The notes beneath the pieces are model-generated. The model did not search any database and was not told the origin of the DNA. It was given only the letters and a program-made list of their open reading frames with translations. Position numbers and translations under genes: made by a program. 64,000 nucleotides of DNA from positions 680,127 to 744,126 of the forward strand of contig NW_027441456.1 of NCBI RefSeq assembly GCF_964195595.1, written 5' to 3'. The stretch comes from Calonectris borealis. Its lineage: Eukaryota. This document shows positions 1 to 52,949 of the stretch, one piece after another. Each line of letters begins with the position of its first letter. Within the stretch, counting starts at the first letter, position 1.

Positions 1-51
1 ATTGGACAAGGGGCACAAGTCCTCAGCCTCTGGAGGCGAATCCTCTCAGGT

Positions 52-792
52 GTGAAGGAAAGGTATCCCTTGAAGGAAGATGTTATATGCCACCCAGGCA
101 AGTGGACCACTATGGAGAGAGGTATCCAGTACCTGAGGGCATTAGCCGTGCTGGAGGTGATTTATGATGACCTGAACAACGAGCAGTTATCCAAAGACCC
201 AGATGAAGTCAAATGCACCCGACCCATGTGGCGGAAGTTTGCACGGAGCGCACCAGCGTCACGTGCCAACTCATTGGCAGTAATGACTTGGAGAGATGGA
301 GAGGAACAAACAGTGGATGAACTGGCTGGCCAACTCCGGCAGTATGAAGAAAGTCTCTCTTCCTCCCTACGGGCCTGTGTCTCTGCTGTGGAGAAACTGT
401 CTCAGGAGGTCCAGCAACTCAAAGAGGATATGTCCTGCTCCCCACCTGCACGGGCCAGTGTCTCAGCCATTAGGAGCAAGCGTCCCTCTGCTCAAGAGAG
501 GACACATCGTGGGTACACACCCTGGGGCACCCTGTGCTTTTACCTGCGTGACCACGGAGAGGACATGAGGCAGTGGAATGGAAAATCTGCCTCAGCCTTA
601 CAGGCACGCGTACATGAGTTGCAAGGAAAAACCACCACAAAAGGGGGTTCTTCCAGGAAAACTGCTGCCCCAGTCTCCAGCAAGCAGTTCCCCAGACAGG
701 GTAGAAGGACTGATTCCACTTCCGACCTTAACAAAGGGACTTCTGATTCACACTTACAAGAAGTGGATAGTGAATATGATGACCAGGACTAG
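52..792 (+). CDS. gag: ERV-A gag (capsid-like C-terminal part; no CCHC zinc knuckle), intact 246-aa ORF ending in TAG
   Basis: The ORF 'MKERYPLKEDVICHPGKWTTMERGIQYLR...DSEYDDQD' lies directly upstream of the protease and is conserved in all three copies. Confidence 0.7.
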   Translation: MKERYPLKEDVICHPGKWTTMERGIQYLRALAVLEVIYDDLNNEQLSKDPDEVKCTRPMWRKFARSAPASRANSLAVMTWRDGEEQTVDELAGQLRQYEESLSSSLRACVSAVEKLSQEVQQLKEDMSCSPPARASVSAIRSKRPSAQERTHRGYTPWGTLCFYLRDHGEDMRQWNGKSASALQARVHELQGKTTTKGGSSRKTAAPVSSKQFPRQGRRTDSTSDLNKGTSDSHLQEVDSEYDDQD

Positions 793-813
793 AGGGGCCC
801 TGCCTCCAGCCAG

Positions 814-1203
814 GTGGAGGAAAGGGACAACCGGGTTTACTGGACTGTGTGGATTCGATGCCCTGGCACATCAGACCCACAGGAGTATAAGGCTCTCGTA
901 GACACCGGTGCACAGTGCACCCTGATGCCATCAGGCTATAAAGGGGCAGAACCCATTTGTATTTCTGGAGTGACAGGGGGATCCCAAGAGTTAACTGTGT
1001 TGGAGGCTGAAGTGAGCCTGACCGGGAAGGAGTGGCAGAAGCACCCCATTGTGACTGGCCCAGGGGCTCCATGCATCCTTGTCATAGACTACCTCAGGAG
1101 AGGGTATTTCAAGGATCCAAAAGTGTACCGGTGGGCTTTTGGTATAGCTGCCCTGGAGACGGAGGAAATCAAACAGCTGTCCACCTTGCCCGGTCTCTCG
1201 TAG
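814..1203 (+). CDS. pro: ERV-A aspartic protease; same frame as gag, separated from it by a single TAG at 790-792 (readthrough configuration)
   Basis: The sequence contains 'ALVDTGAQCTLMP'. The frame stays open from 793 in frame 1, identical to the gag frame. Confidence 0.85.
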   Translation: MEERDNRVYWTVWIRCPGTSDPQEYKALVDTGAQCTLMPSGYKGAEPICISGVTGGSQELTVLEAEVSLTGKEWQKHPIVTGPGAPCILVIDYLRRGYFKDPKVYRWAFGIAALETEEIKQLSTLPGLS

Positions 1204-1215
1204 GATCCTTCTGTT

Positions 1216-3030
1216 GTGGGGTTGTTGAAGGCCAAAGAACAAGTACCAATCGCTACCACAACAGTGCACCGGCGGCAACATCGCATCAACCGAGACTCTC
1301 TGATCCCCATCCATAAGCTGATTCATCGACTGGAGAGCCAAGGAGTGATCAGCAAGACTCGCTCACCCTTTAACAGTCCCATCTGGCCAGTGCGAAAGTC
1401 CGATGGAGAGTGGAGACTAACAGTAGACTACCGTGGCCTGAACGAAGTCACGCCGCCACTGAGTGCTGCCGTGCCGGACATGCTAGAACTTCAATACAAA
1501 CTGGAATCAAAGGCAGCCAAGTGGTACGCCACCATTGATATCGCTAATGCCTACTTCTCCATCCCTTTGGCGGCAGAGTGCAGGCCACAGTTTGCTTTCA
1601 CTTGGAGGGGCATCCAGTACACCTGGAACCGACTGCCCCGGGGGTGGAAACACAGCCCTACCATTTGCCATGGACTGATCCACACCGCACTGGAACAGGG
1701 TGAGGCTCCGGAACACCTGCAATACATTGATGACATCATTGTGTGGGGCAGCACAGCAGAAGAAGTTTTTGAGAAAGGGGAGAGAATAGTCCAAATCCTT
1801 CTGAAGGCCGGCTTTGCCATAAAACAAAGTAAGGTCAAGGGACCTGCACAGGAGATCCAGTTCTTAGGAATAAAATGGCAAGATGGACGTCATCAGATCC
1901 CAATGGATGTGATCAATAAAATAACAGCCATGTCCCCACCAACTAGCAGAAAGGAAACACAAGCTTTCTTAGGCGTGGTGGGATTTTGGAGAATGCATAT
2001 CCCAAATTACAGTCAGATCGTAAGCCCTCTCTATCACGTGACCCGGAAGAAGAACGATTTCAAATGGGGCCCTGAGCAACGACAAGCCTTTGAACAAATT
2101 AAACGGGAGATAGTTCAGGCAGTAGCCCTTGGGCCAGTCCGGGCAGGACAAGATGTAAAGAATGTGCTCTACACCGCAGCCGGGGAGAATGGTCCTACTT
2201 GGAGCCTCTGGCAGAAAGCACCAGGGGAGACTCGAGGTCGACCCTTAGGGTTCTGGAGTCGGGGATACAGAGGATCCGAGGCCCGCTATACTCCAACTGG
2301 GAAGGAGATATTGGCAGCATATGAAGGGGTTCGAGCTGCTTCGGAAGTGGTTGGTACCGAAGCACAGCTCCTCCTGGCACCCCGACTGCCGGTGCTGGGC
2401 TGGATGTTCAAAGGGAGGGTCCCCTCTACACATCATGCAACCGATGCTACGTGGAGTAAGTGGGTCGCACTGATCACACAACGGGCCCGAATAGGAAACC
2501 CCAGTCGCCCAGGAATCTTGGAGGTGATCACGAACTGGCCAGAAGGCAAAGATTTTGGAATATCCCCAGAGGAGGAGGTGATGCGTGCTGAAGAGGCCCC
2601 ACCGTATAACAAACTACCAGAAAATGAGAAGCAATATGCCCTGTTCACTGATGGGTCCTGTCGCCTTGTGGGAAAGCATCAGAGATGGAAGGCTGCGGTA
2701 TGGAGTCCTATACGCCAGGTCGCAGAAACTGCTGAAGGAGAAGGTGAATCGAGTCAGTTTGCAGAGGTGAAAGCCATCCAGCTGGCCTTGGACATTGCTG
2801 AACGAGAAAAATGGCCAGTACTTTATCTCTATACTGCCTCATGGATGGTGGCAAATGCCCTGTGGGGGTGGTTGCAGCAGTGGAAGCAGAACAACTGGCA
2901 GCGCAGAGGTAAACCCATCTGGGCTGCCGCGTTGTGGCAAGATATTGCTGCCCAGGTAGAGAACCTGGTTGTAAAAGTACGTCACGTAGATGCTCATGTA
3001 CCCAAGAGTCAGGCCACTGAAGAACATTAA
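1216..3030 (+). CDS. pol: ERV-A pol: reverse transcriptase + RNase H; same frame as pro after TAG 1201-1203; premature TAA at 3028 relative to copy 2
   Basis: RT motifs 'WRLTVDYRGLN' and 'LQYIDDIIVWG', and RNase H 'ALFTDGSC..TAEGEGESSQFAEVKAIQLAL'. Copy 2 reads through here with 'EHQNNQQVDQAAM'. Confidence 0.9.
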   Translation: MGLLKAKEQVPIATTTVHRRQHRINRDSLIPIHKLIHRLESQGVISKTRSPFNSPIWPVRKSDGEWRLTVDYRGLNEVTPPLSAAVPDMLELQYKLESKAAKWYATIDIANAYFSIPLAAECRPQFAFTWRGIQYTWNRLPRGWKHSPTICHGLIHTALEQGEAPEHLQYIDDIIVWGSTAEEVFEKGERIVQILLKAGFAIKQSKVKGPAQEIQFLGIKWQDGRHQIPMDVINKITAMSPPTSRKETQAFLGVVGFWRMHIPNYSQIVSPLYHVTRKKNDFKWGPEQRQAFEQIKREIVQAVALGPVRAGQDVKNVLYTAAGENGPTWSLWQKAPGETRGRPLGFWSRGYRGSEARYTPTGKEILAAYEGVRAASEVVGTEAQLLLAPRLPVLGWMFKGRVPSTHHATDATWSKWVALITQRARIGNPSRPGILEVITNWPEGKDFGISPEEEVMRAEEAPPYNKLPENEKQYALFTDGSCRLVGKHQRWKAAVWSPIRQVAETAEGEGESSQFAEVKAIQLALDIAEREKWPVLYLYTASWMVANALWGWLQQWKQNNWQRRGKPIWAAALWQDIAAQVENLVVKVRHVDAHVPKSQATEEH

Positions 3031-3042
3031 AACAACAAGGAG

Positions 3043-3678
3043 GTGGACCAGGCTGCTATGATCAAAGTGGCTCAGATAGATCTGGACTGGCAACATAAGG
3101 GTGAATTATTTATAGCTCGGTGGACCCACGACACTTCAGGCCATCAAGGAAGAGACGCAACATATAGATGGGCTCGTGATCGAGGGGTGCACTTGACCAT
3201 GGACACTATTGCACAGGTTATCCATGAATGTGAAACATGCGCTGCAATCAAGCAAGCCAAGCGAGTAAAGCCTCTTTGGTATGGAGGACAATGGTTGAAA
3301 TATAAATATGGGGAGGCTTGGCACATGATTATATCACACTCCCACAAACCCGACAAGGCAAGTGCTATGCTTCTCACACCTGTGGAAGTGACCACAGGAT
3401 GGCTGGAATCATATCCCGTGCCCCATGCCATCGCGTGGAACACCGTCCTGAGCCTTGAAAAGCAAGTCCTATGGCGACATGGCACCCCAGAAAGAATTGA
3501 GTCAGACAACGGGACTCACTTCCGAAACACCCTCATAGACACCTGGGCCAAAGAGCACGGCATTGAGGGGGTCTATCACATCCCCTACCACGCACCAGCC
3601 TCTGGGAAAATCGAACGATACAGCGGGCTGTTAAAGACAACACTGAGAGCAATGGGTGGTGGGACATTCAAGCATTAG
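3043..3678 (+). CDS. pol: ERV-A integrase (HHCC + catalytic core), C-terminus truncated by a stop relative to copy 3
   Basis: Zinc finger 'HDTSGHQGRDATYRW...HECETCAAIK' and core residues '..ESDNGTHF..'. Copy 3 extends to '..QGDLILGENSP'. Confidence 0.85.
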   Translation: MDQAAMIKVAQIDLDWQHKGELFIARWTHDTSGHQGRDATYRWARDRGVHLTMDTIAQVIHECETCAAIKQAKRVKPLWYGGQWLKYKYGEAWHMIISHSHKPDKASAMLLTPVEVTTGWLESYPVPHAIAWNTVLSLEKQVLWRHGTPERIESDNGTHFRNTLIDTWAKEHGIEGVYHIPYHAPASGKIERYSGLLKTTLRAMGGGTFKH

Positions 3679-4401
3679 GACACTCATTTAGCAAAGGCCA
3701 CCTGGTTAGTCAACACCAGGGGATCTTTCAATCGAGCTGGCCCTGCCCAATCAAAACCCTTACGCACTGTAGAGGGGGATAAAGTCCCTGTCGTGCATAA
3801 GAAATATGCTGGGGAAGACAGTCTGGGTTACTCCTGCCTCTGGCAAGGGAAAACCCATCCGTGGGCTTGCTTTTGCTCAAGGACCTGGGTGCGCTTGGTG
3901 GGTGATGCGAAAGGATGGGGAAGTCCGGTGTGTACTTCAAGGGGATTTGATTTTGGGTGAAAATAGCCCATGAACTGGATTGTATGATGTTAGTTACTAT
4001 ATAATACTGTATGTCATCACTTCTATGGTTACTCTATGCCATAGTAACAGTATTACAGTAAGAATCACCCAGGTTAATGTAGGATGAACTCTGATGAAAC
4101 CGAGCAAAGTGCAGCGATGATAGAACCGGACGAGCGCCCAGAACTGGCCTCAGCATGCAAGAGCCCAACACCACACACCATCTCTCCTGCCCTGCAAGAC
4201 TGTTACGACAGGTGGAACCCGAAGTTATGGACTAAATGAACTCAATGGACATTTTAGAGGGATGGCCCATGGATTAAGGTAATAATATCTCTGTGTGTGT
4301 ATATATCAAAAGGCAGGAAAAGTGGTGATGACTAATTGGAATGTATTGGAAAATGTGAGACCTGGGCATGATGTAGATGGTACAGAATAAGGGGTGGATA
4401 T

Positions 4402-4740
4402 TGTCCTGGTTCCAGCTGGGACAGAGTTAACCTTCTTCCCAGTAGCTTGGGGGTGTGCTGTGTTTTGGGTTCGGTGTGAAAGGAGCGTTGATGGCCCATT
4501 GATGCTTTGGCTGTTGCTGGGTGGTGCTTGCACTGGGGGGAGCACAGCCAGGGTGGTGGACCCAGCTGGCCAAGGGGGTATTCTATACCATGTGACATCA
4601 TGCTCAGTATAAAAACCAGGTGTGTGGGGGGGCTCGCCCCCCGTTCGTGACACGCGGTCGGCGAGCAGTTGCATTGTGCATCGCCTGCTTTGTATATTCT
4701 GTTACTGTTGTTGTTCTCATTGCTATTATTACTGTTCTAC
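4402..4740 (+). mobile_element. ERV-A 3' LTR (family LTR-A), ~340 bp; diverges from the 5' LTR after 'ttactgttctac' (truncated or chimeric U5 end)
   Basis: It starts 'tgtcctggttccagctgggacagagttaacc', has TATA 'tataaaaacc' at ~4607, and matches the 5' LTRs at 20135 and 42034 for ~340 bp. Confidence 0.85.
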
Positions 4741-5955
4741 GCCACGCAGACTCCCCCCGATTGGGACTCTTGTGAAGCACCAAGCTTGCTGAATGGGTTC
4801 CTTGTGCCACAGGCCCTGGGCTTATCAGAGATGCTGTGGGGACAAACATCCCTCCTCTTGCCAGGGGAGCTCTGTCCCCACAATTAGAGCCGCGTGGCTG
4901 CCTAGGGACAAGCACCCGCTTCATCGTGTCCCTCTGGACAGCCACATCCTGCTCAGAGACAATGCTGGCCTGGGTCGAGGACGAGGGCATTGAAGGGACA
5001 CTCCATGGGGACAGGGGCCTTTGGTGAGCTGTGGCCAAGTCCCGGGCAGGGGCAGGGCAGGAGCCAGAGCCTTGTTGGGGACGGGGTCACTGGGACCCAC
5101 TGTCTGGGGGCAACTCTGCAGAGTGGGAGCCGTGTTGTCTGGGAGGGCACAGTGGCCCCAGGCAGCGGCAGGGTGAGGGCCGGGGCAGGGGATATTCTGC
5201 TCTGTTCTCTGCTCTGGGGAGGCCATGTCTGGGACTGGACCAGTTTGGGGCCTGCAGTGCAAGGGAAATGGGGTGGGCTGGAGCTGGGCACTGTGACCAC
5301 CCCAGCACTTCCTCCAAGCCGAGCCCTTGTGTCCCAGTGCCCAACATTCACCAGTGCTCCCCATTGCCTCCACTGACTGAAGATCCCAGTCACCCAGCTG
5401 TCCCCATTGCCCATTCCCGAAGTTGTCCTCCTACGTCCCAGTGTTCCCAAATCCCAGGGTCCCAGGGGTCAGTCCCAGCCCCCCATTTACCCAAGGGGCT
5501 GGAGAAGGGCCAGAGACAATTCTACTTAGAAACCCTTGGTTTGAGGCTGGCGTCATCTCTGGGGGAGTCCCAGAGGGAAAGGCTGGCCTGGGAGGTGAGA
5601 GGCACTGCGAGATGGCAGTGCTGGGAGGTGAGGGGCACTGGGAGCTGGGGGGATCTAGCTTTGGGGGGCTGTTGGAGGATGGTTTCATGCTGGAGCAGTG
5701 GGTCATCACCATAGGGTTTCCGGCTGTCAGAGGCGCACTGCCCGTCCCCCTCACCACCCACAGATGCCTGGGCCCTTCCATGTGCAGCTGCCCCTTGCAG
5801 GAAGCTGGACTGATGCCGGGGAAGGTGGCTGGATCAGTGCCGGAGGCTGAGGCGACTCTGTGCCAGCGCTAGGCTTGCTGCCAGGGCTGGTGTCTCTGCC
5901 AAGCCTGGCTTTGCCCTGGGGGCTCTCGGGATGGGCAAGGAGGAGTCCTGGGAGG

Positions 5956-5962
5956 GATAAAT
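5956..5962 (+). promoter_or_regulatory. TATA-like box (GATAAAT) ~55 bp upstream of the candidate gene ATG, copy 1
   Basis: 'gggataaatcggcccc' at 5953-5968, followed by a 5'UTR-like run and the ATG at 6016. Confidence 0.4.
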
Positions 5963-6015
5963 CGGCCCCTCACCTTCTCCAGCTTCACCCAGCACTCACC
6001 ACACTACAGAGAAAG

Positions 6016-7754
6016 ATGAAGGTCGCAGCGCTCAGCGTGGCCCTGCTCTTCACCATCCTGCTCTGCACCCCGGAAGATGCTCAGGTGAGTCCCCACTGCC
6101 ATGGGGAGGGGCTCAAGGCTGGGGATGGGTCTTGGCTGCAGGATGTCAGCTCTCTTGCAGAATGAAATTGCAGTGGTGAGCCTGAAACCCCTTGACATGG
6201 CCTCTCCCTTTCCCAAGCAAGGAGCTCCTCCAGGCTCCCCTGCACCTCCAGCCCTGGGCAATGCAGCTCTCTCCCTCCCTCCCTCCATCTGTTCCCCCCT
6301 TCCCCCGCAATTAAACTTCCAGAGCTAGAGTTCCTCAGAGAGTGGTCAGACCTGTCCCTTCCCTAGGAGGGTCCACTGTAAAATCCTGTGAGGGCTCTTC
6401 TCTTGGTGCCCCCACATCTCTCCCTTTTGGCCATCCCCATCCCATCCTTTTGTCCCCCTCAGACATGCCCTCCCCACGATCTCCTCCATGTCCTATCTAG
6501 GGTCCCCAAATGCCCTCCCACTGATCGTTCCCAATGCCTTTCTTTCAGTCTTCCCCCTCAGTCCTTTGCCTTTCATCCTGTCCACTGTGGTAGTGTCCCC
6601 AGATCCCCTTCCTTGAAGTCCCACTCCCAAACATTCTCCCAGTCCCCTTCATTTTGTCCTCTGCAGTCCTCTTCCTTCTGCCCCCACCAACCACCTCGCT
6701 TGAACTCCCCCTATCTCCTCCACTTGAATTTCTTTACCCCTCACTTGCGTCCCACGCAGTCCTGTCCATTCAACGCCCCCAGCCCAGTCCCTTGGGGTCC
6801 GCTAATTCACCCCAGTGCCCTGTCTTTGGGTGCCTCCCGCCCCCATCAGCTTTGGAGACCCCGAATTCCCCACTCTATCCGTGTCTCCATCCCCACCCCT
6901 GGTCCCTGCATGAACAGGTATCCCCGGTGAAACTTGGAGGAATGGGGCTGGGGGGAGCAGAAGGTTTTTTCCCCCTCAGACCAAGGGGAAGCCATGGGCC
7001 TGGGGGGACTGGGGACACCTATGCCCTACCCACAGCCCCACCAAGGTCCAATCCAGACAACACCTTTCCTCTCCTTCCCTAGGCATTCTTCGAAGCAAGT
7101 GGAAGTTATAGCCGGCAAGTAAGTAGTGGGGTGGACTTGGAGGGCATCCAGTCTGGGGAATGGGAGGGCAATTTGGTCCTCCCATCCCTTGCTGGGACTG
7201 GGGACATCCCAGTGACCAGCGAGGTCTCACGGTCTCTCTACAGCTGAGCTACAGTTTCGGGCGAGTGAAGAGGGCTGAGGTAGGTACGATGAGTTCTGCT
7301 GGCTCCAGACCCTCCCGTTGCATGGCCACGACACTCCAGAGCATCCCAGCATAGGCCCCAATAGACCCCACTGCAACCCCAGAGAACACCCCTGCACCAC
7401 AGTGTTTTCCCAGGGAGGCCCCTTTCCCCAGGGCCCCCATTGCCTTCCCATCCATCCCATTACAACCCACTGCACCCCAGGATGTCCCAGTACACAGCCA
7501 CGCACCCAGGTGGGCCCCTTCCCCAGGACGCCCCCTGCTTTCTGTGCACCATCATGGAAACTCATGTACCCCATTTCTCCCTGGAGGCACCTTCCCCAAG
7601 GACCCCATTGCTTTCCCCTGCCTCCCACTCCACCCCAGTGTACCCAAGCATGTCCCCCCACCACTAACCCTCCCTTTCTCCCCAGCCCCTTCTGGCTGAC
7701 CGGGCGGCGGAGCTTGTGCGCCGTAGACGCGTGGCTGCAGCTGTTCATGGCTAG
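6016..7754 (+). CDS. Candidate small secreted peptide precursor gene, copy 1: 4 exons, all phase 0 (6016-6084, 7083-7118, 7244-7279, 7686-7754), 69 aa
   Basis: - Exon 1 encodes 'MKVAALSVALLFTILLCTPEDAQ' and is followed directly by GTGAGT.
- The 36-nt exons have AG acceptors after pyrimidine tracts and GTAAGT/GTAGGT donors.
- The product is 'MKVAALSVALLFTILLCTPEDAQAFFEASGSYSRQLSYSFGRVKRAEPLLADRAAELVRRRRVAAAVHG'.
- The splice phase is conserved in all three copies. Confidence 0.4.
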
Positions 7755-8351
7755 GTGAGCAGCATCAGCCCCGCAAAGGATCCTGGGCCCCAGGGGATCC
7801 CTGAGCCCTCTCGGGTGGGCAGAACTTGGGTATGGGAGAGGGAAACAGAGGGGACTGTCCATGATCCATGTCTCAGGGTGAGCTGGACAGAGCTGCCCCC
7901 ATGCCTTTCCTGGCACCCAGTGGGGCTCTACAGGCCCAGAGGGTCACCGTGCAGGCCAGGCAAGGGCTCTGGTGCCATACAGACCCCCAGGATCACCTTG
8001 AGGGGTGGGCAGGGCTCTGGGAGCTTTAGGGGCATCCTGGGCTAATGACACACTGGGCAAGGGCCTCTAGGTGCCATATGGACCTCAGGAGAGCCAAGTC
8101 CTGTCCTGGGTATACTGAGGGCTCCAATTCCTGTCTCCTTTCCCAGATCCCTGCAGAGAGAGATGGTGGGGGCGAGGCCCCTCTCATGTCTCAGCAGACA
8201 CTGGGGGTCTCATTTTGGGCTCTGTCTTTCAGGACTGGAACTGATGGTGACACCCCTGTCCCATCCCCCTCCAGCGGCATGAGGAGATGATCATCCCTGG
8301 ATGACCCCACCTGGTCCCCTGGGAGGCCTGGGCCATTTCCCTCTAATGATC

Positions 8352-8357
8352 AATAAA
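8352..8357 (+). terminator. Polyadenylation signal AATAAA, putative 3' end of candidate gene copy 1
   Basis: 'ctctaatgatcaataaaccccttcagcaaagc'; the same motif lies at the same unit position in copies 2 and 3. Confidence 0.45.
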
Positions 8358-9096
8358 CCCCTTCAGCAAAGCTACGCTCTGTGTGTCCGTCGGTGTCCTT
8401 GTCCATGTCCCTGTCCATGTCCCCTCTCCTCTGCCAGCGCCCAGATGCCTGGGTTGTTTCTGGCTGCACCACTGCCATGAGCAGAGTGGCTGAGGGACCC
8501 CGGATGCCAGGGGTGTTTCTGTAAAGGAGATCCCCTTCCCACCCACCGTGTGCCCCCAGATAAGGGCACATTAGGGCAAACTGGGGTGTCCCCCCATGAG
8601 GCTGGGAGAGGTAAGGGGCAGATGGTGCCAACCTCCCAGTGTTTTGGAGGCATAACGGGAAACAGGTTCTTACCGGGGCTCTAGTGAGCACCATCCCCCA
8701 AACAGCACAATTTGGTGTTGGGGCAGGAGAGGAGCGTGGACAGGCAGCCCGGATGCCTGGCTGCTCTGCCCCACTCTGGGAGGGGTGGTGGTTCCCTGCC
8801 CCATGGGTTCACCACTCCTGGGTTCACAGGAGATTTCTGAGCTCCATGTGCCCATGTGCCTTCCTGGACCTCCAGCCCACACCCTTCTCTGGGGTACCCC
8901 CCATCACAGGCCAGGAAGGCAGGTCATGGGCACCAGATGCTGCACAGACCTCTCCCTGTCCCCCGCCATGTGTGGCTCAGCTTTGCGGGACTTTGTGTTC
9001 ATTATCTCTTGGCTGTGGTTTTGTCTCTCCAGGCATGCACTGAATTACCACCGACTTTTACGTTAGGAATTTTTCCCTCGCCCCACTGCATGTGAT

Positions 9097-9151
9097 GGGC
9101 TTATTGGGTCTTTTCCAACCTAAATGATTCTGTGATTCTCTGATTCTATGA
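9097..9151 (+). mobile_element. CR1 LINE 3'-terminal fragment (copy 2 equivalent at 30999-31052)
   Basis: 'gggcttattgggtcttttccaacctaaatgattctgtgattctctgattctatga' matches the CR1 3' UTR with its 8-bp tail repeats. Confidence 0.75.
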
Positions 9152-12530: not shown

Positions 12531-12539
12531 TGTTGAGAG

Positions 12540-13150: not shown

Positions 13151-13244
13151 GTTGCTTATACTATTTCAGCTAGCGAGAGAATTACTCATGCACATACATT
13201 AACCAAATACATGTACACATACGGAAACCATTGCAAGCACATGT

Positions 13245-13840: not shown

Positions 13841-13875
13841 CTAGTTTCTTTGGCAATCGTATAGTTTTTAACAGC

Positions 13876-22649: not shown

Positions 22650-22670
22650 AGGGGCCCTGCCTCCAGCCAG

Positions 22671-35734: not shown

Positions 35735-35769
35735 CTAGTTTCTTTGGCAATCGTATAGTTTTTAACAGC

Positions 35770-42621: not shown

Positions 42622-43422
42622 TTGTTCTGCACCATGCTCTTGTTTTTACTGTACCTGTTAAAGATTGGAGTTGGGTTTTGTAGTCTGCTGTGCTCTGCAG
42701 TGATTAATGATGTTTTGCCTGGGAGATTTGTTACTAAAACGCTGGCATTGGGGGTTATTTGGTATTTGGGATTTGTAATGAAGCTGTTACTATATTTCAG
42801 GTACCACCTCATGGAGACCGTTAGCAATTATACCTTTTCCTCTGAGAGATTTTTTATGGAGGAAGTAGAGAATGGCACCCTCACTACCTTCCTCTATGAT
42901 GTCGTCTCCTTTGTTAAAATAACTTGTCAGTACCTTGAACATCCCTGGGTAGTTAAGGTACATCTATTGGTACTCCTTGGGAATATTGTTATGGTTTTAT
43001 CCAAGGTTAGTAAGCAATTTAAGAACGTCATCCAGAGATCTGCCCCAAGGCTGGATAGTTATGAGTGGCAGGGCGAGTGGGATAGCATGGGCAAATGCCT
43101 AGGGCGATGGGCACCCCCAGTGTTCTGGAACTTCACCCCTGAACAAGTGCAGAATCCTGAAAAATTAGTAGAATATTTGGAAGAAGTATGCTGTCACCCT
43201 GGCCATCCTAGGGAGACGCAAATCACTGCAATGTGCTGGGGCCTGGCCCATGCCTACCGAGCCCTGTTTAACACCACTCAGAACCCCCAAGGGGAAGGAA
43301 AGGTCGCTGCAGCTGATGACAAAGCAACAGGCCCTGCGTCTCTACCGCACCCCCCACGGCAAGCACAGCAGCCCCCCCACCCCCCACAGCAGGCACGGCA
43401 GCTACTCCGCCCCCTGCGATAG
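42622..43422 (+). CDS. gag: ERV-A gag N-terminal (matrix-like / Pro-rich) region, 266-aa open frame in copy 3
   Basis: ORF '..METVSNYTFSSERFFMEEVENGTL...QNPQGEGKVAAADDKATGPASLPHPP..'; the same sequence is frameshifted in copy 2. Confidence 0.55.
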   Translation: MFCTMLLFLLYLLKIGVGFCSLLCSAVINDVLPGRFVTKTLALGVIWYLGFVMKLLLYFRYHLMETVSNYTFSSERFFMEEVENGTLTTFLYDVVSFVKITCQYLEHPWVVKVHLLVLLGNIVMVLSKVSKQFKNVIQRSAPRLDSYEWQGEWDSMGKCLGRWAPPVFWNFTPEQVQNPEKLVEYLEEVCCHPGHPRETQITAMCWGLAHAYRALFNTTQNPQGEGKVAAADDKATGPASLPHPPRQAQQPPHPPQQARQLLRPLR

Positions 43423-43808
43423 AGAACCAACCCATGCCGGTATCAGTCGCCCCTATACAAAAAAGAAAATGCACAAGAAAATCAGCTCGTCTAGTAAGGG
43501 ATGAAGATGAACCAGGGCCATCACGAGAACAGGAGGAGGAGGAGGAGGCGGAACCTGTAAATGAGATGGTGACCACCCGATCCCTATCCCTGGGTGAGCT
43601 GCAAGATATGTGAAAAGACTTCAGTTGTCGTCCAGGCGAGCACATTGTCACCTGGCTGCTCCGATGCTGGGATAACGGGGCCAGTAGCCTGGAATTAGAG
43701 GGTAGGGGAGCCAAGCAGCTGGGATCCCTTTCTAGGGAAGGGGGCATTGACAAAGCAATTGGACAAGGGGCACAAGTCCTCAGCCTCTGGAGGCGAATCC
43801 TCTCAGGT

Positions 43809-44549
43809 GTGAAGGAAAGGTATCCCTTCAAGGAAGATGTTATATGCCACCCAGGCAACTGGACCACCATGGAGAGAGGTATCCAGTACCTGAGGGAATT
43901 AGCCGTGCTGGAAGTGATTTATGATGACCTGAACAACAAGCAGTTATCCAAAGACCCAGATGAAGTCAAATGCACCCGACCCATGTGGCGGAAGTTTGTA
44001 CGGAGGGCACCAGCGTCACGTGCCAACTCATTGGCCATAATGACCTGGAGAGATGGAGAGGAACAAACAGTGGATGAACTGGCTGGCCAACTCCGGCAGT
44101 ATGAAGAAAGTCTCTCTTCCTCCCTACGGGCCTGTGTCTCTGCTGTGGAGAAACTGTCTCAGGAGGTCCAGCAACTCAAAGAGGATATGTCCTGCTCCCC
44201 ACCTGCACGGGCCAGTGTCTCAGCCATTAGGAGCAAGCGGCCCTCTGCTCAAGAGAGGACACATCGTGGGTACACACCCCGGGGCACCCTGTGCTTTTAC
44301 CTGCGTGACCACGGAGAGGACATGAGGCAGTGGGATGGAAAATCTGCCTCAGCCTTACAGGCACGCGTACATGAGTTGCAAGGAAAAACAACCACAAAAG
44401 GGGGTTCTTCCGGGAAAACTGCTGCCCCAGTCTCCAGCGAGCAGTTCCCCAGACAGGGTAGAAGGACTGATTCCACTTCCGACCTTAACAAAGGGACTTC
44501 TGATTCACACTTACAAGAAGTGGATAGTGAATATGATGACCAGGACTAG
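43809..44549 (+). CDS. gag: ERV-A gag (capsid-like) copy 3, intact 246 aa, terminated by TAG followed in-frame by protease
   Basis: 'MKERYPFKEDVICHPGNWTTMERGIQYLRELAVLEV..DSEYDDQD'. Confidence 0.7.
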   Translation: MKERYPFKEDVICHPGNWTTMERGIQYLRELAVLEVIYDDLNNKQLSKDPDEVKCTRPMWRKFVRRAPASRANSLAIMTWRDGEEQTVDELAGQLRQYEESLSSSLRACVSAVEKLSQEVQQLKEDMSCSPPARASVSAIRSKRPSAQERTHRGYTPRGTLCFYLRDHGEDMRQWDGKSASALQARVHELQGKTTTKGGSSGKTAAPVSSEQFPRQGRRTDSTSDLNKGTSDSHLQEVDSEYDDQD

Positions 44550-44570
44550 AGGGGCCCTGCCTCCAGCCAG

Positions 44571-44960
44571 GTGGAGGAAAGGGACAACCGGGTTTACTGG
44601 ACTGTGTGGATTCAATGGCCTGGCACATCAGACCCACAGGAATATAAGGCTCTCGTAGACACCGGAGCACAGTGTACCCTGATGCCACCAGGCTATAAAG
44701 GGGCAGAACCCATTTGTATTTCTGGAGTGACAGGGGGATCCCAAGAGTTAACTGTATTGGAGGCCGAAGGGAGCCTGACCGGGAATGAGTGGCAGAAGCA
44801 CCCCATTGTGACTGGCCCAGGGGCTCCGTGCATCCTTGTCATAGACTACCTCAGGAGAGGGTATTTCAAGGATCCAAAAGTGTACCAGTGGGCTTTTGGT
44901 ATAGCTGCCCTGGAGACGGAGGAAATCAAACAGCTGTCCACCTTGCCCGGTCTCTCGTAG
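44571..44960 (+). CDS. pro: ERV-A protease copy 3
   Basis: 'ALVDTGAQCTLMPPGYKG'; same frame as gag and pol. Confidence 0.85.
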   Translation: MEERDNRVYWTVWIQWPGTSDPQEYKALVDTGAQCTLMPPGYKGAEPICISGVTGGSQELTVLEAEGSLTGNEWQKHPIVTGPGAPCILVIDYLRRGYFKDPKVYQWAFGIAALETEEIKQLSTLPGLS

Positions 44961-44972
44961 GATCCTTCTGTT

Positions 44973-47732
44973 GTGGGGTTGTTGAAGGCCAAAGAACAAG
45001 TACCAATCGCTACCACAACAGTGCACCGGCGGCAATACCGCACCAACCGAGACTCCCTGATCCCCATCCATGAGCTGATTCATCGACTGGAGAGCCAAGG
45101 AGTGATCAGCAAGACTCGCTCACCCTTTAACAGTCCCATCTGGCCAGTGCGAAAGTCCAATGGAGAGTGGAGACTAACAGTAGACTACCGTGGCCTGAAC
45201 AAAGTCACGCCGCCACTGAGTGCTGCCGTGCCGGACATGCTGGAACTTCAATACGAACTGGAATCAAAGGCAGCCAAGTGGTACGCCACAATTGACATTG
45301 CTAATGCGTTCTTCTCCAACCCTTTGGCGGCAGAGTGCAGGCCACACTTTGCTTTCACTTGGAGGGGCGTCCGGTACACCTGGAACCGACTGCCCCAGGG
45401 GTGGAAACACAGCCCTACCATTTGCCATGGACTGATCCACACCGCACTGGAACAGGGTGAGGCTCCCAAACACCTGCAATACATTGATGACATCATCGTG
45501 TGGGGCAGCACAGCAGAAGAAGTTTTTGAGAAAGGGGAGAGAATAGTCCAAATCCTTCTGAAGGCCGGCTTTGCCATAAAACGAAGTAAGGTCAAGGGAC
45601 CTGCACAGGAGATCCAGTTCTTAGGAATAAAATGGCAAGATGGACGTCATCAGATCCCAACGGATGTGATCAACAAAACAACAGCCATGTCCCCACCAAC
45701 TAGCAGAAAGGAAACACAAGCCTTCTTAGGCGTGGTGGGGTTTTGGAGAATGCATATCCCAAATTACAGTCAGATCGTAAGCCCTCTCTATCAAGTGACC
45801 CGGAAGAAGAACGATTTCAAATGGGGCCCTGAGCAACGACAAGCCTTTGAACAAATTAAACGGGAGATAGTTCAGGCAGTAGCCCTTGGGCCAGTCCGGG
45901 CAGGACAAGATGTAAAGAATGTGCTCTACACCGCAGCCGGGGAGAATGGTCCTACTTGGAGCCTCTGGCAGAAAGCACCAGGGGAGACTTGAGGTCGACC
46001 CTTAGGGTTTTGGAGTCGGGGATACAGAGGATCCGAGGCCCGCTATACTCCAACTGGGAAGGAGATATTGGCAGCATATGAAGGGGTTCGAGCTGCTTCG
46101 GAAGTGGTTGGTACTGAAGCACAGCTCCTCCTGGCACCCCGACTGCCGGTGCTGGGCTGGATGTTCAAAGGGAAGGTCCCCTCTACACATCATGCAACCG
46201 ATGCTACGTGGAGTAAGTGGGTCGCACTGATCACACAACGGGCCCGAATAGGAAACCCCAGTCGCCCAGGAATCTTGGAGGTGATCACGAACTGGCCAGA
46301 AGGCAAAGATTTTGGAATATCCCCAGAGGAGGAGGTGACACGTGCTGAAGAAGCCCCACTGTATAATAAACTACCAGAAAACGAGAAGCAATATGCCCTG
46401 TTCACTGATGGGTCCTGTCGCCTTGTGGGAAAGCATCAGAGATGGAAGGCTGCGGTATGGAGTCCTATACACCAAGTCGCAGAAACTGCTGAAGGAGAAG
46501 GTGAATCGAGCCAGTTTGCAGAGGTAAAAGTCATCCAGCTGGCCTTGGACATTGCCGAACGAGAAAAATGGCCAGTGCTTTATCTCTATACTGCCTCATG
46601 GATGGTGGCAAATGCCCTGTGGGGGTGGCTGCAGCAGTGGAAGCAGAACAACTGGCAGCGCAGAGGTAAACCCATCTGGGCTGCCGCACTGTGGCAAGAT
46701 ATTGCTGCCCGAGTAGAGAACCTGGTTGTAAAAGTACGTCACGTAGATGCTCACGTACCCAAGAGTCGGGCCACTGAGGAACATCAAAACAATCAGCAGG
46801 TGGACCAGGCTGCTATGATCGAAGTAGCTCAGATAGATCTGGACTGGCAACATAAGGGTGAATTATTTATATCTTGGTGGACCCACGACACTTCAGGCCA
46901 TCAAGGAAGAGACGCAACATACAGATGGGCTCGTGATCGAGGGGTGCACTTGACCATGGACACTATTGCACAGGTTATCCATGAATGTGAAACATGCGCT
47001 GCAATCAAGCAAGCCAAGCGAGTAAAGCCTCTTTGGTATGGAGGACGATGGTTGAAATATAAATATGGGGAGGCTTGGCACATTGATTATATCACACTCC
47101 CACAAACCCGACAAGGCAAGTGCTATGCTCTCACCGTGGTGGAAGTAACCACAGGATGGCTGGAATTATATCCCGTGCCCCATGCCATCGCCTGGAACAC
47201 CGTCCTGAGCCTTGAAAAGCAAGTCCTATGGCGACATGGCACCCCAGAAAGAATTGAGTCAGACAACGGGACTCACTTCCGAAACACCCTCATAGACACC
47301 TGGGCCAAAGAGCATGGCATTGAGGGGGTCTATCACATCCCCTACCATGCACCAGCCTCCGGGAAAATCGAACGATACAACGGGCTGCTAAAGACAACAC
47401 TGAGAGCAATGGGTGGTGGGACATTCAAGCATTGGGACACACATTTAGCAAAAGCCACCTGGTTAGTCAACACCAGGGGATCTGTCACTCGAGCTGGCCC
47501 TGCCCAATCCAAACTCTTACGCACTGTAGAGGGGGATAAAGTCCCTGTTGTGCATATGAGAAACATGCTGGGGAAGACAGTCTGGGTTACTCCTGCCTCT
47601 GGCAAGGGAAAACCCATTCGTGGGATTGCTTTTGCTCAAGGACCTGGGTGCGCTTGGTGGGTGATGCGAAAGGATGGGCAAGTCCGGTGTGTACCTCAAG
47701 GGGATTTAATTCTGGGTGAAAATAGCCCATGA
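44973..47732 (+). pseudogene. pol: ERV-A pol copy 3 (RT-RNase H-IN) interrupted by TGA at ~45990 (ORFs 44973-45992 and 46068-47732); integrase C-terminus complete
   Basis: 'YIDDIIVWG'; the integrase ends '..WWVMRKDGQVRCVPQGDLILGENSP*'. Confidence 0.85.
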
Positions 47733-49722
47733 ACTGGATTGTATGATATTAGTTACTATATAATACTGTATGTCATCACTTCTATGGTTACTCTATGCCA
47801 TATTAACAGTATTACAGTAAGAATCACCCAGGTTAATGTAGGATGAACTCTGATGAAACCAAGCAAAGTGCAACGATGATAGAACCGGACGAGCGCCCAG
47901 AACTGGCCTCAGCATGCAAGAGCCCAACACCACACACCATCTCTCCTGCCCTGAAAGACTGTTATGGCAGATGGAACCCGAACTCATGGACTAAATGAAC
48001 TCAACGGACATTTTAGAGGGATGGCCCATGGACTAAGGTAATAATATCTCTGTGTGTGTATATATCAAAAGGCAGGAAAAGTGGTGATGACTAATTGGAA
48101 TGTATTGGAAAATGTGAGACCTGGGCATGATGTAGATGGTACAGAATAAGGGGTGGATATTGTCCTGGTTCCAGCTGGGACAGAGTTAGCTTTCTTCCCA
48201 GTAGCTTGGGGGGTGTGCTGTGTTTTGGGTTCGGTGTGAAAGGAGCGTTGATGGCCCATTGATGCTTTGGCTGTTGCTGGGTGGTGCTTGCACTGGGGGG
48301 AGCACAGCCAGGGTGGTGGACCCAGCTGGCCAAGGGGGTATTCTATACCATGTGACATCATGTTCAGTATAAAAACCAGGTGTGTGGGGGGGCTCGCCCC
48401 CCGTTCGTGACACGCGGTCGGCGGTCGGTGAGCAGTTGCATTGTGCATCGCCTGCTTTGTATATTCTGTTACTGTTGTTGTTCTCATTGCTATTATTACT
48501 GTTCTACGCCACGCAGACTCCCCCCGATTGGGACTCTCGTGAAGCACCAAGCTTGCTGAATGGGTTCCTTGTGCCACAGGCCCTGGGCTTATCAGAGATG
48601 CTGTGGGGACAAACATCCCTCCTCTTGCCAGGGGAGCTCTGTCCCCACAATTAGAGCCGCGTGGCTGCCTAGGGACAAGCACCCGCTTCATCGTGTCCCT
48701 CTGGACAGCCACATCCTGCTCAGAGACAATGCTGGCCTGGGTCGAGGACGAGGGCATTGAAGGGACACTCCATGGGGACAGGGGCCTTTGGTGAGCTGTG
48801 GCCAAGTCCCGGGCAGGGGCAGGGCAGGAGCCAGAGCCTTGTTGGGGACGGGGTCACTGGGACCCACTGTCTGGGGGCAACTCTGCAGAGTGGGAGCCGT
48901 GTTGTCTGGGAGGGCACAGTGGCCCCAGGCAGCGGCAGGGTGAGGGCCGGGGCAGGGGATATTCTGCTCTGTTCTCTGCTCTGGGGAGGCCATGTCTGGG
49001 ACTGGACCAGTTTGGGGCCTGCAGTGCAAGGGAAATGGGGTGGGCTGGAGCTGGGCACTGTGACCACCCCAGCACTTCCTCCAAGCCGAGCCCTTGTCTC
49101 CCGGTGCCCAACATTCACCAGTGCTCCCCATTGCCTCCACGGACTGAAGATCCCAGTCACCCAGCTGTCCCCATTGCCCATTCCCCGAGTTGTCCTCCTA
49201 CGTCCCAGTGTTCCCTAATCCCAGGGTCCCAGGGGTCAGTCCCAGCCCCCCATTTACCCAAGGGGCTGGAGAAGGGCCAGAGACAATTCTACTTAGAAAC
49301 CCTTGGTTTGAGGCTGGCGTCATCTCTGGGGGAGTCCCAGAGGGAAAGGCTGGCCTGGGAGGTGAGAGGCACTGCGAGATGGCAGTGCTGGGAGGTGAGG
49401 GGCACTGGGAGCTGGGGGGATCTAGCTTTGGGGGGCTGTTGGAGGATGGTTTCATGCTGGAGCAGTGGGTCATCACCGTAGGGTTTCCAGCTGTCAGAGG
49501 CGCACTGCCCGTCCCCCTCACCACCCGCAGATGCCTGGGCCCTTCCATGTGCAGCTGCCCCTTGCAGGAAGCTGGACTGATGCCGGGGAAGGTGGCTGGA
49601 TCAGTGCCGGAGGCTGAGGCGACTCTGTGCCAGCGCTAGGCTTGCTGCCAGGGCTGGTGTCTCTGCCAAGCCTGGCTTTGCCCTGGGGGCTCTCGGGGTG
49701 GGCAAGGAGGAGTCCTGGGAGG

Positions 49723-49729
49723 GATAAAT
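49723..49729 (+). promoter_or_regulatory. TATA-like box of candidate gene copy 3
   Basis: 'gggataaatcggcccc'. Confidence 0.4.
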
Positions 49730-49782
49730 CGGCCCCTCGCCTTCTCCAGCTTCACCCAGCACTCGCCACACTGCAGAGGAAG

Positions 49783-51520
49783 ATGAAGGTCGCAGCGCTC
49801 AGCATGGCCCTGCTCTTCACCATCCTGCTGTGCACCCCGGAAGATGCTCAGGTGAGTCCCCACTGCCATGGGGAGGGCCTCAAGGCTGGGGATGGGTCTT
49901 GGCTGCAGGATGTCAGCTCTCTTGCAGAATGAAATTGCAGTGGTGAGCATGAAACCTCTTGACATGGCCTCTCCCTTTCTCAAGCAAGGAGCTCCTCTAG
50001 GCTCCCCTGCACCTCCAGCCCTGGGCAATGCAGCTTTCTCCCTCCCACAATTCCATGTTCCCCTCTTCCCCCGCAATTAAACTTCTGGTGCCCAGAGACA
50101 GCGTTCCTCAGAGAGTGGTCAGACCTGTCCCTTCCCTAGTAGGGTTCACTGTAAAATCCTGTGAGGGCTCTTCTCTTGGTGCCCCCACATCTCTCCCTTT
50201 TGGCCTTCCACATCCCATCCTTTTGTCCCCCTCAGACATGCTCTCCCCACGATCTCCTCCTATCTAGGGTCCCCAAATGCCCTCCCACTGATCGTTCCCA
50301 ATGCCTTTCTTTCAGTCTTCCCCCTCAGTCCTTTGCCTTTCATCCTGTCCTCTGCGGTAGTGTCCCCGGATCCCCTTCCTTGAAGTCCCACTCCCAAACA
50401 TTCTCCCAGTCCCCTTCATTTTGTCCTCTGCAGTCCTCTTCCTTCTGCCCCCACCAACCACCTCGCTTGAACTCCCCCTATCTTCTCCACTTGAATTTCT
50501 TTACGCCTCACTTGCGTCCCACGCAGTCCTGTCCATTCAACGCCCCCAGCCCAGTCCCTTGGGGTCCGCTAATTCACCCCAGTGCCCTGTCTTTGGGTGC
50601 CCCCCACCCCCATCGGCTTTGGAGACCCCGAATTCCCCACTCTATCCGTGTCTCCATCCCCACCCCTGGTCCCTGCCTGAACAGGTATCCCCAGTGAAAC
50701 TTGGAGGAATGGGGCTTCGGGGAGCAGAAGGTTTTTTCCCCCTCAGACCAAGGGGAAGCCATGGGCCTGGGGGGACATGGGACACCTATGCCCCACCCAC
50801 AGCCCCACCAAGGTCCAATCCAGACCACACCTTTGCTCTCCTTCCCTAGGCATTCTTCGAAGCAAGTGGAAGTTATAGCCTGGACGTAAGTAGTCGGGTG
50901 GACTTGGAGGGCATCCAGTCTGGGGAATGGGAGGGCAATTTGGTCCTCCCATCCCTTGCTGGGACTGGGGACATCCCAGTGACCAGTGAGGTCTCATGGT
51001 CTCTCTACAGTTCGGGTACAGTTTCGGGCGAGTGAAGAGGGCTGAGGTAGGTACGATGAGTTCTGCTGGCTCCAGACCCTCCCGTTGCATGGCCACAACA
51101 CTCCAGAGCATCCCAGCATAGGCCCCAATAGACCCCACTGCAACCCCAGAGAACACCCTTGCACCACAGTGTTTTCCCAGGGAGGCCCCTTTCCCCAGGG
51201 CCCCCATTGCGTTCTCATTCATCCCATTACAAGCCACTACACCCCAGGATGCCCCAGTACACAGCCACCCACCCAGGTGGGCCCCTTCCCCAGGACGCCC
51301 CTGCTTTCTGTGCACCATCATGGAAACTCAGGTACCCCATTTCTCCCTGGAGGCACCTTCCCCAAGGACCCCATTGCTTTCCCCTGCCTCCTACTCCACC
51401 CCAGTGTACCCAAGCATGTCCCCCCACCACTAACCCTCCCTTTCTCCCCAGCCCCTTCTGGCTGACCAGGCGGCGGAGCTTGTGCGCCGTAGACGCGTGG
51501 CTGCAGCTGTTGATGTCTAG
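49783..51520 (+). CDS. Candidate small secreted peptide precursor gene, copy 3: exons 49783-49851, 50850-50885, 51011-51046, 51452-51520
   Basis: Signal peptide 'MKVAALSMALLFTILLCTPEDAQ'. Exon 2 encodes '..SYSLD', exon 3 'FGYSFGRVKRAE' and exon 4 'PLLADQAAELVRRRRVAAAVDV*'. Indels of 1 bp at both exon-2/3 edges compensate so that phase 0 is kept. Confidence 0.4.
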
Positions 51521-52138
51521 GTGAGCAGCATCAGGGCGTCTCCAGCCCCGCAAAGGACCCTGGGCGCCAAGGGATTCCTACACCCTCTCGGGTGGGCAGA
51601 ACTTGGGTATGGGAGAGGGAAACAGAGGGGACTGTCCATGATCCATGTCTCAGGGTGAGCTGGACAGAGCTGCCCCCATGCCTTTCCTGGCACCCAGTGG
51701 GGCTCTACAGACCCAGAGGGTCACCGTGCAGGCCAGGCAAGGGCTCTGGTGCCATACAGACCCCCAGGATCACCTTGAGGGGTGGGCAGGGCTCTGGGAG
51801 CTTTAGGGGCATCCTGGGCTAATGACACACTGGGCGAGGGGCTCTGGGTGCCATATGGATTTCAGGAGAGCCGAGTCCTGTCCTGGGTATACTGAGGGCT
51901 CCAATTCCTGTCCCCTTCCCCAGATCCCTGCAGAGAGAGATGGTGGGGGCGAGGCCCCTCTCACGTCCCAGCAGACACTGGGGGGTTCATTTTGGGCTCT
52001 GTCTTTCAGGACTGGAACTGGTGGTGACACCCTTGTCCCGTCCCCCTCCAGCGGCATGAGGAGATGATCATACCTGGATGACCCCACCTGGTCCCCTGGG
52101 AGGCCTGGGCCATTTCCCTCTAATGATCAATAAACCCC

Positions 52139-52144
52139 TTCAGC
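52139..52144 (+). terminator. Polyadenylation signal AATAAA, candidate gene copy 3
   Basis: 'taatgatcaataaaccc'. Confidence 0.45.
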
Positions 52145-52949
52145 AAAGCTACGCTCTGTGTGTCCGTCGGTGTCCTTGTCCATGTCCCTGTCCATGTCCC
52201 CTCTCCTCTGCCAGCACCCAGATGCCTGGGTTGTTTCTGGCTGCACCACTGCCATGAGCAGAGTGGCTGAGGGACCCCGGATGCCAGGGGTGTCTCTGTA
52301 AAGGAGATCCCCTTCCCACCCACCGTGTGCCTCCAGATAAGGGCACATTAGGGCAAACTGGGGTGTCCCCCCATGAGGCTGGGAGAGGTAAGGGGCAGAC
52401 AGTGCCAGCCCTTAGGGCACCCAGTCTTTTGGAGGCACAGCAGGAAACAGGTTCTTACCGGGACTCTATTGAGCACCATCCCCCAATTTGGTGTCAGGGC
52501 AGGAAAGGAGTGCAGACAGGCATCCCAGATCCCTGGGTGTTCTGCCCCGCTCTGGGAGTGGTGGTGGTTCCCTGCCCCATGGACTCACCACTCCCAGGAG
52601 ATTTCAGAGCCCCATGCTGGGCCTCCCTGGACCCCCAGCCCACACCCTTCTCTGGGGCACCCCCCATCATAGGCCAGGAAGGCATTTTGGGGCCACTGGA
52701 CACTGCAGAGAATCCCCCAGGGATGTGCGGTCCATCTCCATCACCATGAGAGTGGGAGAAGATGGTTCTGTGGCACTGAGCCTCTGTGGGTCTTCTCTGG
52801 TGTCTAGGAGTGAAGTTCAGCCACCAGCTGCAGTTGGTATCTCCACAAAAAGGCACAGGCAGGGCTGCTCCCTCTAGCCCAGAGGCCTGCTCTGACAATT
52901 TGGGGACTGGAAGTGGCCAACAGGGCCAGTCCTTATTAGGGGAGGAGGA

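Follow-up and report, generated by a model that had tools for sequence, protein, structure and literature searches.

A tandem array carrying a peptide gene and a provirus

The stretch of DNA examined here, which we refer to as the window, comprises 64,000 nucleotides of the Calonectris borealis contig NW_027441456.1 (assembly GCF_964195595.1, positions 680,127 to 744,126 of the forward strand) and contains a tandem array whose 21.9-kb unit carries a small peptide gene, an endogenous retrovirus (ERV) that we call ERV-A, and pieces of other retroelements (Table 1). The units were compared using BLAST-based alignments. In self-BLASTN, positions 1-30823 match 21859-52684 in a single collinear alignment with 97.9% identity over 30.9 kb, and 1-8921 match 43758-52684 in like orientation at 96.2%. 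These off-diagonal alignments reproduce exactly the periods of 21,858 and 21,899 bp reported in an initial annotation of this DNA, with all copies arranged head-to-tail in one orientation, and a direct alignment of 8922-30823 with 30824-52684, which that annotation had proposed, also pairs the units as expected. Its count of at least three copies is correct for an 8.9-kb part of the unit, whereas the other 12.9 kb is seen twice, giving a total of 2.41 unit lengths within the window, past whose left edge the array extends. Similarly, its figure of ~98% identity between copies is sound as an average and pools two very different divergence classes: when only substitutions are counted, identity is 98.7% between copies A and B, 97.5% between B and C, and 97.0% between A and C (over 8.9-21.9 kb).

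Several finer points of the initial annotation were also borne out. A 9-bp insertion near 23027 is present, in the form of TTAAA plus AATT, and the gag proteins do differ between copies, with Gag-like open reading frames (ORFs) diverging at 11 of 246 and 6 of 145 residues. The longest indel between copies is 12 bp and therefore no copy has a private transposon insertion, in agreement with the proposal that every retroelement was copied together with the unit. The window consists of A, C, G and T only, with zero Ns. Having at least two head-to-tail copies, a constant period, a unit of at least 1 kb and an identity of at least 90%, the repeat is a tandem segmental duplication by the usual definition, and we regard it as a genuine but ordinary, recombination-driven one whose architecture is directly observed.

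Table 1. Features of the window and their counterparts in a snowy-owl locus (L003). LTR, long terminal repeat; RT, reverse transcriptase; LINE, long interspersed nuclear element.
Feature	Position in window	Strand	Remarks
Copy A, partial unit	1-8921	+	3' 4.7 kb of ERV-A, gene copy A, R block; aligns to 21859-30823 and 43758-52684
Copy B, full unit, 21,902 bp	8922-30823	+	aligns to 30824-52684
Copy C, full unit to end of young (97-98%) identity	30824-52399	+	drop in 60-bp window identity
ERV-A provirus, copy B, 6.5 kb	20135-26610	+	LTR pair; Pfam domains in pol ORF
ERV-A, other copies	1-4740 (partial), 42034-48507	+	
ERV-A 5' LTR, copy B	20135 to ~20632	+	
ERV-A 3' LTR, truncated	26260-26610 (copy B), 4390-4740, 48149-48507	+	
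Gene copy A	5954-8357	+	TATA-like box 5954; exons 6016-6084, 7083-7118, 7244-7279, 7686-7754; AATAAA 8352
Gene copy B	27824-30244	+	exons 27886-27954, 28959-28994, 29120-29155, 29562-29630
Gene copy C	49721-52134	+	exons 49783-49851, 50850-50885, 51011-51046, 51452-51520
ERV-B fragment	14373-16712; second copy 36267-38606	+	protease, RT, RNase H, frameshifted; Pfam matches
CR1 LINE fragment	10956-12537	-	interrupted by diverged solo LTR 11285-11837
Low-divergence block, 0.45%	8972-21010, paired with 30874-42909	+	core 12688-16144 identical to 34582-38038
Match to owl L003 6970-8099	19168-20134		collinear; ends exactly at ERV-A 5' LTR start
Match to owl L003 8717-13001	26633-30935		collinear; begins just past truncated 3' LTR, runs through gene and across 30823|30824
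Match to owl L003 13004-13067, 13265-14423	31087-31149, 31882-32997		collinear
R_end, old paralogue of R blocks 8623-8948 and 30510-30850	52400-52711	+	78% identity, 13% substitutions
Foreign sequence, ~5.9 kb, splitting old copy	52712-58627	.	ERV-A-type solo LTR, CR1, (AGGGA)24
Degenerate older unit continuation	58656-63074	+	S block, weak collinear matches, minus-strand CR1 61154-63074

Retroelements of the unit

ERV-A has an LTR pair around gag-pro-pol coding capacity and is thus a provirus. A Pfam scan of long ORFs identified RVT_1, RNase_H and integrase domains in its pol ORF at 23082-25259, and among solved structures its RT is nearest to the enzymes of foamy virus and of murine leukaemia virus (MLV) and xenotropic MLV-related virus (XMRV). 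The ERV-A pol protein is 83-92% identical in amino acid (aa) sequence to hundreds of unnamed avian pol proteins from cranes, storks, ibises, parrots and songbirds, which places it in a common avian ERV lineage; its identity to any protein reaches at most 92% (storks, ibises and cranes). Some of these avian pol proteins carry gamma-type Gag_p30 or TLV_coat domains, and ERV-A is described here as a gamma-like provirus. Its pol frame is broken differently in each copy, into 604 plus 211 aa (1216-3678), 725 aa (23082-25259), and 339 plus 554 aa (44973-47732), indicating that the ERV-A copies are decaying independently.

The 5' and 3' LTRs of ERV-A differ by 3.7-5.0% in substitutions, while the two 5' LTRs are identical to each other and the three 3' LTRs are 0.6-0.9% apart. 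The initial annotation had pointed out that divergence within the LTR pair exceeds that between units, and this remains true against our full inter-unit range of 0.45-3.0%. It had offered two explanations, namely amplification after the insertions and later homogenisation of the array, and both apply. The 3' LTR is incomplete: it stops at 26610, about 135 bp short of the point at which homology between the 5' LTR and a solo LTR in the array's tail ends (20616) and further still from the estimated end of the 5' LTR near 20632, and the cut falls directly before an ATTAAA that is present in the 5' LTR. Based on this arrangement, ERV-A transcripts might read into the peptide gene 1.3 kb downstream.

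In addition to ERV-A, the unit holds an older ERV fragment, ERV-B, as well as minus-strand CR1 pieces, diverged solo LTRs and a minisatellite with 18-48-bp repeats that is found in each unit at 12579-13075 and 34473-34969. An Rfam search returned no match.

Owl and pigeon loci without the array

Two pigeon loci (L001 and L002) and three snowy-owl loci (L003 to L005) served for comparison, the gene region of the window being 77-82% identical to pigeon and 81-85% to owl, values that set the window apart as another neoavian lineage. The 21.9-kb tandem repeat was not found in the 2 pigeon or the 3 owl loci. All three owl loci align collinearly with the window, at 81-85% identity, to the left and right of ERV-A as well as over the boundary 30823|30824, and where the window has 6.5 kb the owl site without ERV-A has 617 bp. 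The alignable owl sequence also lacks the ERV-B, CR1 fragments and solo LTRs of the units, and no homology to the ERV-A LTR was found in the pigeon upstream region. A segment of host DNA 5' of the gene, at least 350 bp long and common to owl and pigeon, is missing from the window beside the ERV-A 3' LTR. It follows that the 3' end of ERV-A was lost along with the host DNA next to it, and it is because of this deletion that the target-site duplication of ERV-A is unreadable.

The initial annotation had drawn its units from 8921|8922. Since the owl locus is contiguous across this boundary, it is ancestral and is not the join made by the duplication. One candidate for the original join, a possibly chimeric CR1 at 11.1-11.8 kb, was considered: its RT part is nearest to the CR1 in the owl left flank, at only 72%, and insertion of a solo LTR into a single CR1 accounts for its gap.

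The comparison loci have duplications of their own. Pigeon L001 (13850-34325) and L002 (13234-29052) are 99% identical over more than 16 kb, lie on separate scaffolds and each carry the peptide gene, which constitutes an independent, non-tandem segmental duplication. In owl, L004 (13883-19736) and L005 (13884-19737) have a 5.85-kb LTR element, with LTRs 96.7% identical, just 3' of the gene region that is not in L003, and the snowy-owl copies are otherwise 99.9% identical over 13.5 kb. Two segments of L003 (1295-1789 and 2656-2806) are weak paralogues, at 61-82%, of sequence ~6 kb to their right, just left of the gene and at its start, and look like the trace of an older duplication in owl too.

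Divergence between units is mosaic

The two divergence classes occupy separate parts of the unit. ERV-A and the gene differ by 2.3-2.4% between neighbouring units and by up to 3.0% across copies, in direct contrast to a 12-kb block with 0.45% divergence, at whose core lies an exact match of 3,457 bp; under uniform divergence, 2,000 simulations predict a mean longest run of 452 bp and a maximum of 853 bp. High divergence returns sharply at ~21011, inside ERV-A, and rises gradually on the other side. An alternative in which one recent tandem duplication was followed by regional differences in mutation rate, with neither an older duplication nor gene conversion, would draw on the composition of the more diverged part, which is richer in GC (55.8% vs 46.7%) and in CpG, with 37% of its differences at CpG sites. 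Nonetheless, at non-CpG sites divergence is still 1.45-1.65% in ERV-A and the gene versus 0.36% in the 12-kb block, and this roughly fourfold contrast leads us to reject CpG hypermutability as the cause. Together with 3.46 kb devoid of any difference, the abrupt transition at ~21011, and a terminal 310 bp and tail that are at least 13% diverged yet collinear with the unit and with owl, this makes the single-duplication alternative very improbable. The mosaic, which is observed directly, thus goes beyond what mutation rates explain and has the form expected of recombination or concerted evolution.

Private substitutions within the 8.9-kb part number 130 in copy A, 81 in B and 159 in C, and are interspersed with runs of one type. 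A single event of non-allelic homologous recombination (NAHR), which would make the middle copy a straightforward recombinant of the two beside it, was rejected as a candidate because private sites occur in all 3 copies and in most 500-bp bins. Taken together, the mosaic divergence, the long exact run and the identical 5' LTRs argue for repeated exchange after amplification, by gene conversion or unequal crossover. Within the near-identical block, we also noted 6 substitutions and a 1-bp deletion in 10 bp (19593-19602 vs 41493-41501), a cluster that looks like a small complex mutation.

The same mosaic bears on whether the copies, or at least the 12-kb block, could come from the assembly itself, through haplotype stitching, false duplication, or consensus polishing of a collapsed repeat. 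A divergence of 0.45% and 3,457 identical bases fall within the range of allelic variation or of a polishing artefact, and all three owl loci lie 2-9 kb from contig ends, marking this as a type of region that is difficult to assemble. On the other hand, the 8.9-kb part exists in three versions that are 2.3-3.0% apart from one another, each with substitutions and indels of its own, and two haplotypes cannot yield three versions; the initial annotation had invoked such scattered differences against an artefact, and here the argument holds. Furthermore, the sequence has no Ns, a single uninterrupted alignment shows plainly distinct paralogous sequence to either side of the near-identical blocks, and the array edge described below is an old and biologically sensible breakpoint. 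We therefore consider an assembly artefact improbable, though less firmly so for the near-identical block.

The right edge lies within an older duplication

Copies B and C are 95-100% identical per 60-bp window up to B 30479 / C 52369, after which identity falls abruptly to ~78% for ~310 bp (from B 30480-30510 / C 52370-52400) and to noise past ~52711. Position 52684, initially given as the end of the array, is indeed as far as detectable homology reaches, but young identity ends at ~52399 and a degenerate older copy continues in the tail. The sequence in which the drop occurs is a block that we call R, which is also present in owl. Of 270 sites compared three ways, 18 are private to the R block of copy B, 17 to the terminal R and 24 to the owl R; because the three are nearly equidistant, the terminal R is an old paralogue. 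Past ~5.9 kb of foreign sequence, a second block, S (58656-58855), matches 8995-9254 at 80-88% and does not have the 61-bp CR1-tail insert found there. The sharp drop at 52399 and the collinear old homology in the tail therefore indicate that the young array sits on an older, decayed duplication. An edge in pre-existing homology is what recombination predicts, and judging from these alignments the right border resembles a site at which a crossover took place, or a conversion tract ended, within the old homology.

The position of this edge also weighs on a scenario in which the provirus caused the amplification, through recombination between ERV-A-type LTRs as in a tandem provirus. The region does contain three LTR classes of one family (5', 3', and a solo LTR at 53385-53892) that are 3.7-5.5% apart, and the return of divergence at ~21011 is only ~400 bp inside ERV-A. 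However, the young edge at ~52399 falls within R, which is host-derived, rather than within an LTR, and the nearest LTR is 0.7 kb past the homology end at 52684 and ~1 kb past the young edge, so that a unit boundary at an LTR was not found at the right edge. Moreover, ~15 kb of non-ERV-A sequence separates successive proviruses, and the 5' and 3' LTRs are not hybrids of each other. ERV-mediated amplification is thus highly unlikely in our view, and the retroelements are passengers of the amplification.

The foreign sequence in the tail has several features of its own. Its solo LTR, which lies outside the array and is 4.5-5.5% diverged from the proviral LTRs, directly adjoins a 5'-truncated CR1 at 53908-56036 (+). 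The tail further contains two microsatellites, a perfect (AGGGA)24 at 56184-56302 and (CTATT)17 at 60477-60561.

The unit carries an intact gene for a fast-evolving peptide

The sole host gene of each unit lies on the + strand, 1.3 kb 3' of ERV-A. Its exons are all phase 0 with AG/GT borders, and the product reads, exon by exon, MKVAALSVALLFTILLCTPEDAQ/AFFEASGSYSRQ/LSYSFGRVKRAE/PLLADRAAELVRRRRVAAAVHG. The ORF of 69 codons, the splice sites, the TATA box and the poly(A) signal are intact in all three gene copies. From its sequence, the gene is predicted to encode a 69-aa secreted precursor with a furin site, belonging to a neoavian family without a name. A search with the translated exons returned only 'uncharacterized protein' entries of Patagioenas fasciata (band-tailed pigeon) on at least 5 contigs, plus one Columba livia entry, and a HMMER search run exhaustively contributed one protein each from snowy owl and hawfinch, along with unnamed ORFs of metagenomic assemblies. 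Exact look-ups of pigeon isoforms gave no record for P0001 and P0003 and succeeded for P0007, P0013 and P0135. At a threshold of E<=1, neither the proteins of window, owl, pigeon and hawfinch nor the 3 + strand frames of 4741-9300 matched any Pfam family. The signal peptide and TATA box had raised the guess of a CC-chemokine gene, which we rejected given that no CC or other cysteine pattern exists in any frame and that there is no Pfam match; an Ig-like receptor of the leukocyte receptor complex, suggested by the 36-nt exon 2, was likewise rejected, as the + strand frames contain no immunoglobulin (Ig) domain and the protein is only 69 aa long. Overall, comparison with named secreted-peptide, chemokine, defensin and Ig-receptor families gave no profile match and no diagnostic cysteines or Ig domain, and the mature region of the peptide has zero cysteines.

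Across homologues, precursors of ~70-86 aa conserve an R/K-V-K-R processing site at the end of exon 3, and the four-exon structure and its splice sites are kept in owl and pigeon (L003 10001-11727; L001 25250-26747). The signal-peptide exon is 91-96% identical across window, owl and pigeon. By comparison, exons 2-4 are ~72% identical versus ~84% for the introns, with a binomial p of ~1e-4 in both comparisons. That these exons outpace the introns and that the pigeon duplications arose independently together suggest diversifying selection on the secreted peptide, which we put forward as a lead that falls short of demonstration. Copies B and C show 11 coding differences, and 7 of them are confined to the final 5 nt of exon 2 and the opening 6 nt of exon 3 (28990-28994 and 29120-29125 vs 50881-50885 and 51011-51016). 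These sites adjoin in the mRNA and are 125 bp apart in the DNA, the intervening intron has only 2 changes, and the resulting peptide change is RQLS to LDFG.

Two gene models in other birds are unusual. The pigeon RefSeq models of the homologous gene start in an ERV pol fragment (MVVKVHHGDAH) that resembles window 2965-3012, and the hawfinch homologue P0136 (CAN8175062) has the signal-peptide sequence MKVAVLSVALLFSILLCPSAQAK twice in tandem, reflecting either a duplication of exon 1 or an artefact of the gene model.

A tentative extension of these observations, which we think rather less likely to be right than wrong, is that the gene could be the first known representative of a Neoaves-wide precursor family, so far undescribed, with cleavage at R-V-K-R, a mature peptide evolving faster than neutral and a locus duplicated independently in several lineages (in tandem here, on pigeon scaffolds, and in the older owl traces). 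Such a pattern would fit an arms-race gene, encoding for example a peptide of host defence or reproduction, with selection possibly acting on its copy number and diversity, and the truncated ERV-A LTR 1.3 kb upstream might aid its transcription. Any selective benefit of the extra gene copies would be a matter of inference, set beside the intact reading frames that we observe.

A proposed layered history of the array

Based on the foregoing, we infer an order of events and a recombination mechanism, and hold it to be likely that an old tandem duplication was followed by ERV-A loading of one unit, re-amplification by unequal homologous recombination, and partial homogenisation thereafter. The ancestral order would have been that of the snowy owl, in which a left flank and the peptide gene are followed by a right flank of R and S blocks and CR1; the collinearity of the window with owl and pigeon is itself an observation. 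An early tandem duplication of this region would have produced the diverged paralogous blocks. One unit would then have gained ERV-A, losing the 3' LTR end and at least 350 bp of host DNA; the units also carry ERV-B and other retroelement pieces, which may have inserted before or after the old duplication. The loaded 21.9-kb unit would next have been re-amplified by unequal homologous recombination between misaligned copies, with the right-hand crossover at ~52399, inside the old R block. Later gene conversion or further unequal crossovers would have left the near-identical 12-kb block beside the 2.3-3% difference in ERV-A and the gene.

Several points count against this history. The original duplication join is confined to ~12.5-19.2 kb, all of it retroelement debris, and was not located, and the left end of the array is outside the window. 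The middle copy is no simple hybrid, so that several events or unseen copies are needed, and ~12 kb is long for the tract of a single conversion event. Tail homology past the S block is weak (65-70%) and in part consists of CR1, where family similarity could mimic collinearity. Lastly, the number of copies, and likewise the near-identity seen across the 12-kb block, are as the assembly gives them.

Relation to known systems and significance

Tandem gene-bearing modules shaped by crossover and conversion are already classical, and this locus adds one. In the human RCCX module (RP-C4-CYP21-TNX, in class III of the major histocompatibility complex), unequal crossover and gene conversion have moulded both the number of modules and their sequence (PMC3595039). 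The array resembles RCCX in having tandem gene-bearing modules of tens of kb, a possible ERV passenger, and unequal crossover together with conversion. It differs in organism and genes, in that copy-number polymorphism is documented for RCCX, and in that the RCCX ERV is intronic while ERV-A lies upstream of the gene. The RCCX passenger is HERV-K(C4), of ~6.4 kb. Further counterparts are macrosatellites in general and the human TSPY/DYZ5 locus, a 20.4-kb gene-containing tandem array (PMC3924835) with which our locus shares a unit of ~20 kb, one small gene per unit, head-to-tail order and high identity; unlike TSPY, with its tens of copies at >99% identity on a non-recombining chromosome, 2.4 units are visible here at 97-99.5%. 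In birds, segmental duplications of the tree sparrow co-amplify expanded genes and LTR elements, the duplication itself multiplying the LTRs (10.1101/2023.02.19.529176). Newly expanded genes and LTR elements lie together within segmental duplications in both cases, but the peptide gene is not among the tree sparrow families (ZNF, OR, PIM and others), and unit-level history was not resolved in that study.

For the gene, the closest parallels are amphibian skin peptides and conotoxins, which are encoded by fast-evolving secreted-precursor genes in which the signal peptide is conserved and the mature peptide hypervariable. Common to these and to the gene described here are a conserved signal exon, mature exons that evolve faster than introns, a dibasic site and repeated gene duplication. 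In contrast to those systems, the gene has no sequence or Pfam relation to a named peptide family and no cysteines.

The locus provides a well-resolved example of an avian gene-bearing tandem array that passively multiplies ERVs. Inside such arrays, dating by LTR divergence and counts of ERV copies are confounded, as illustrated by the two 5' LTRs that are identical only through copying of the unit, and assemblies will probably collapse the array or misjudge its copy number. The value of the locus lies mainly in its resolved, layered history and in a peptide gene whose family, from pigeons to owls to finches, is unannotated, fast-evolving and apparently without a published name. The hypervariable mature region of this gene is the best lead to come from the locus.

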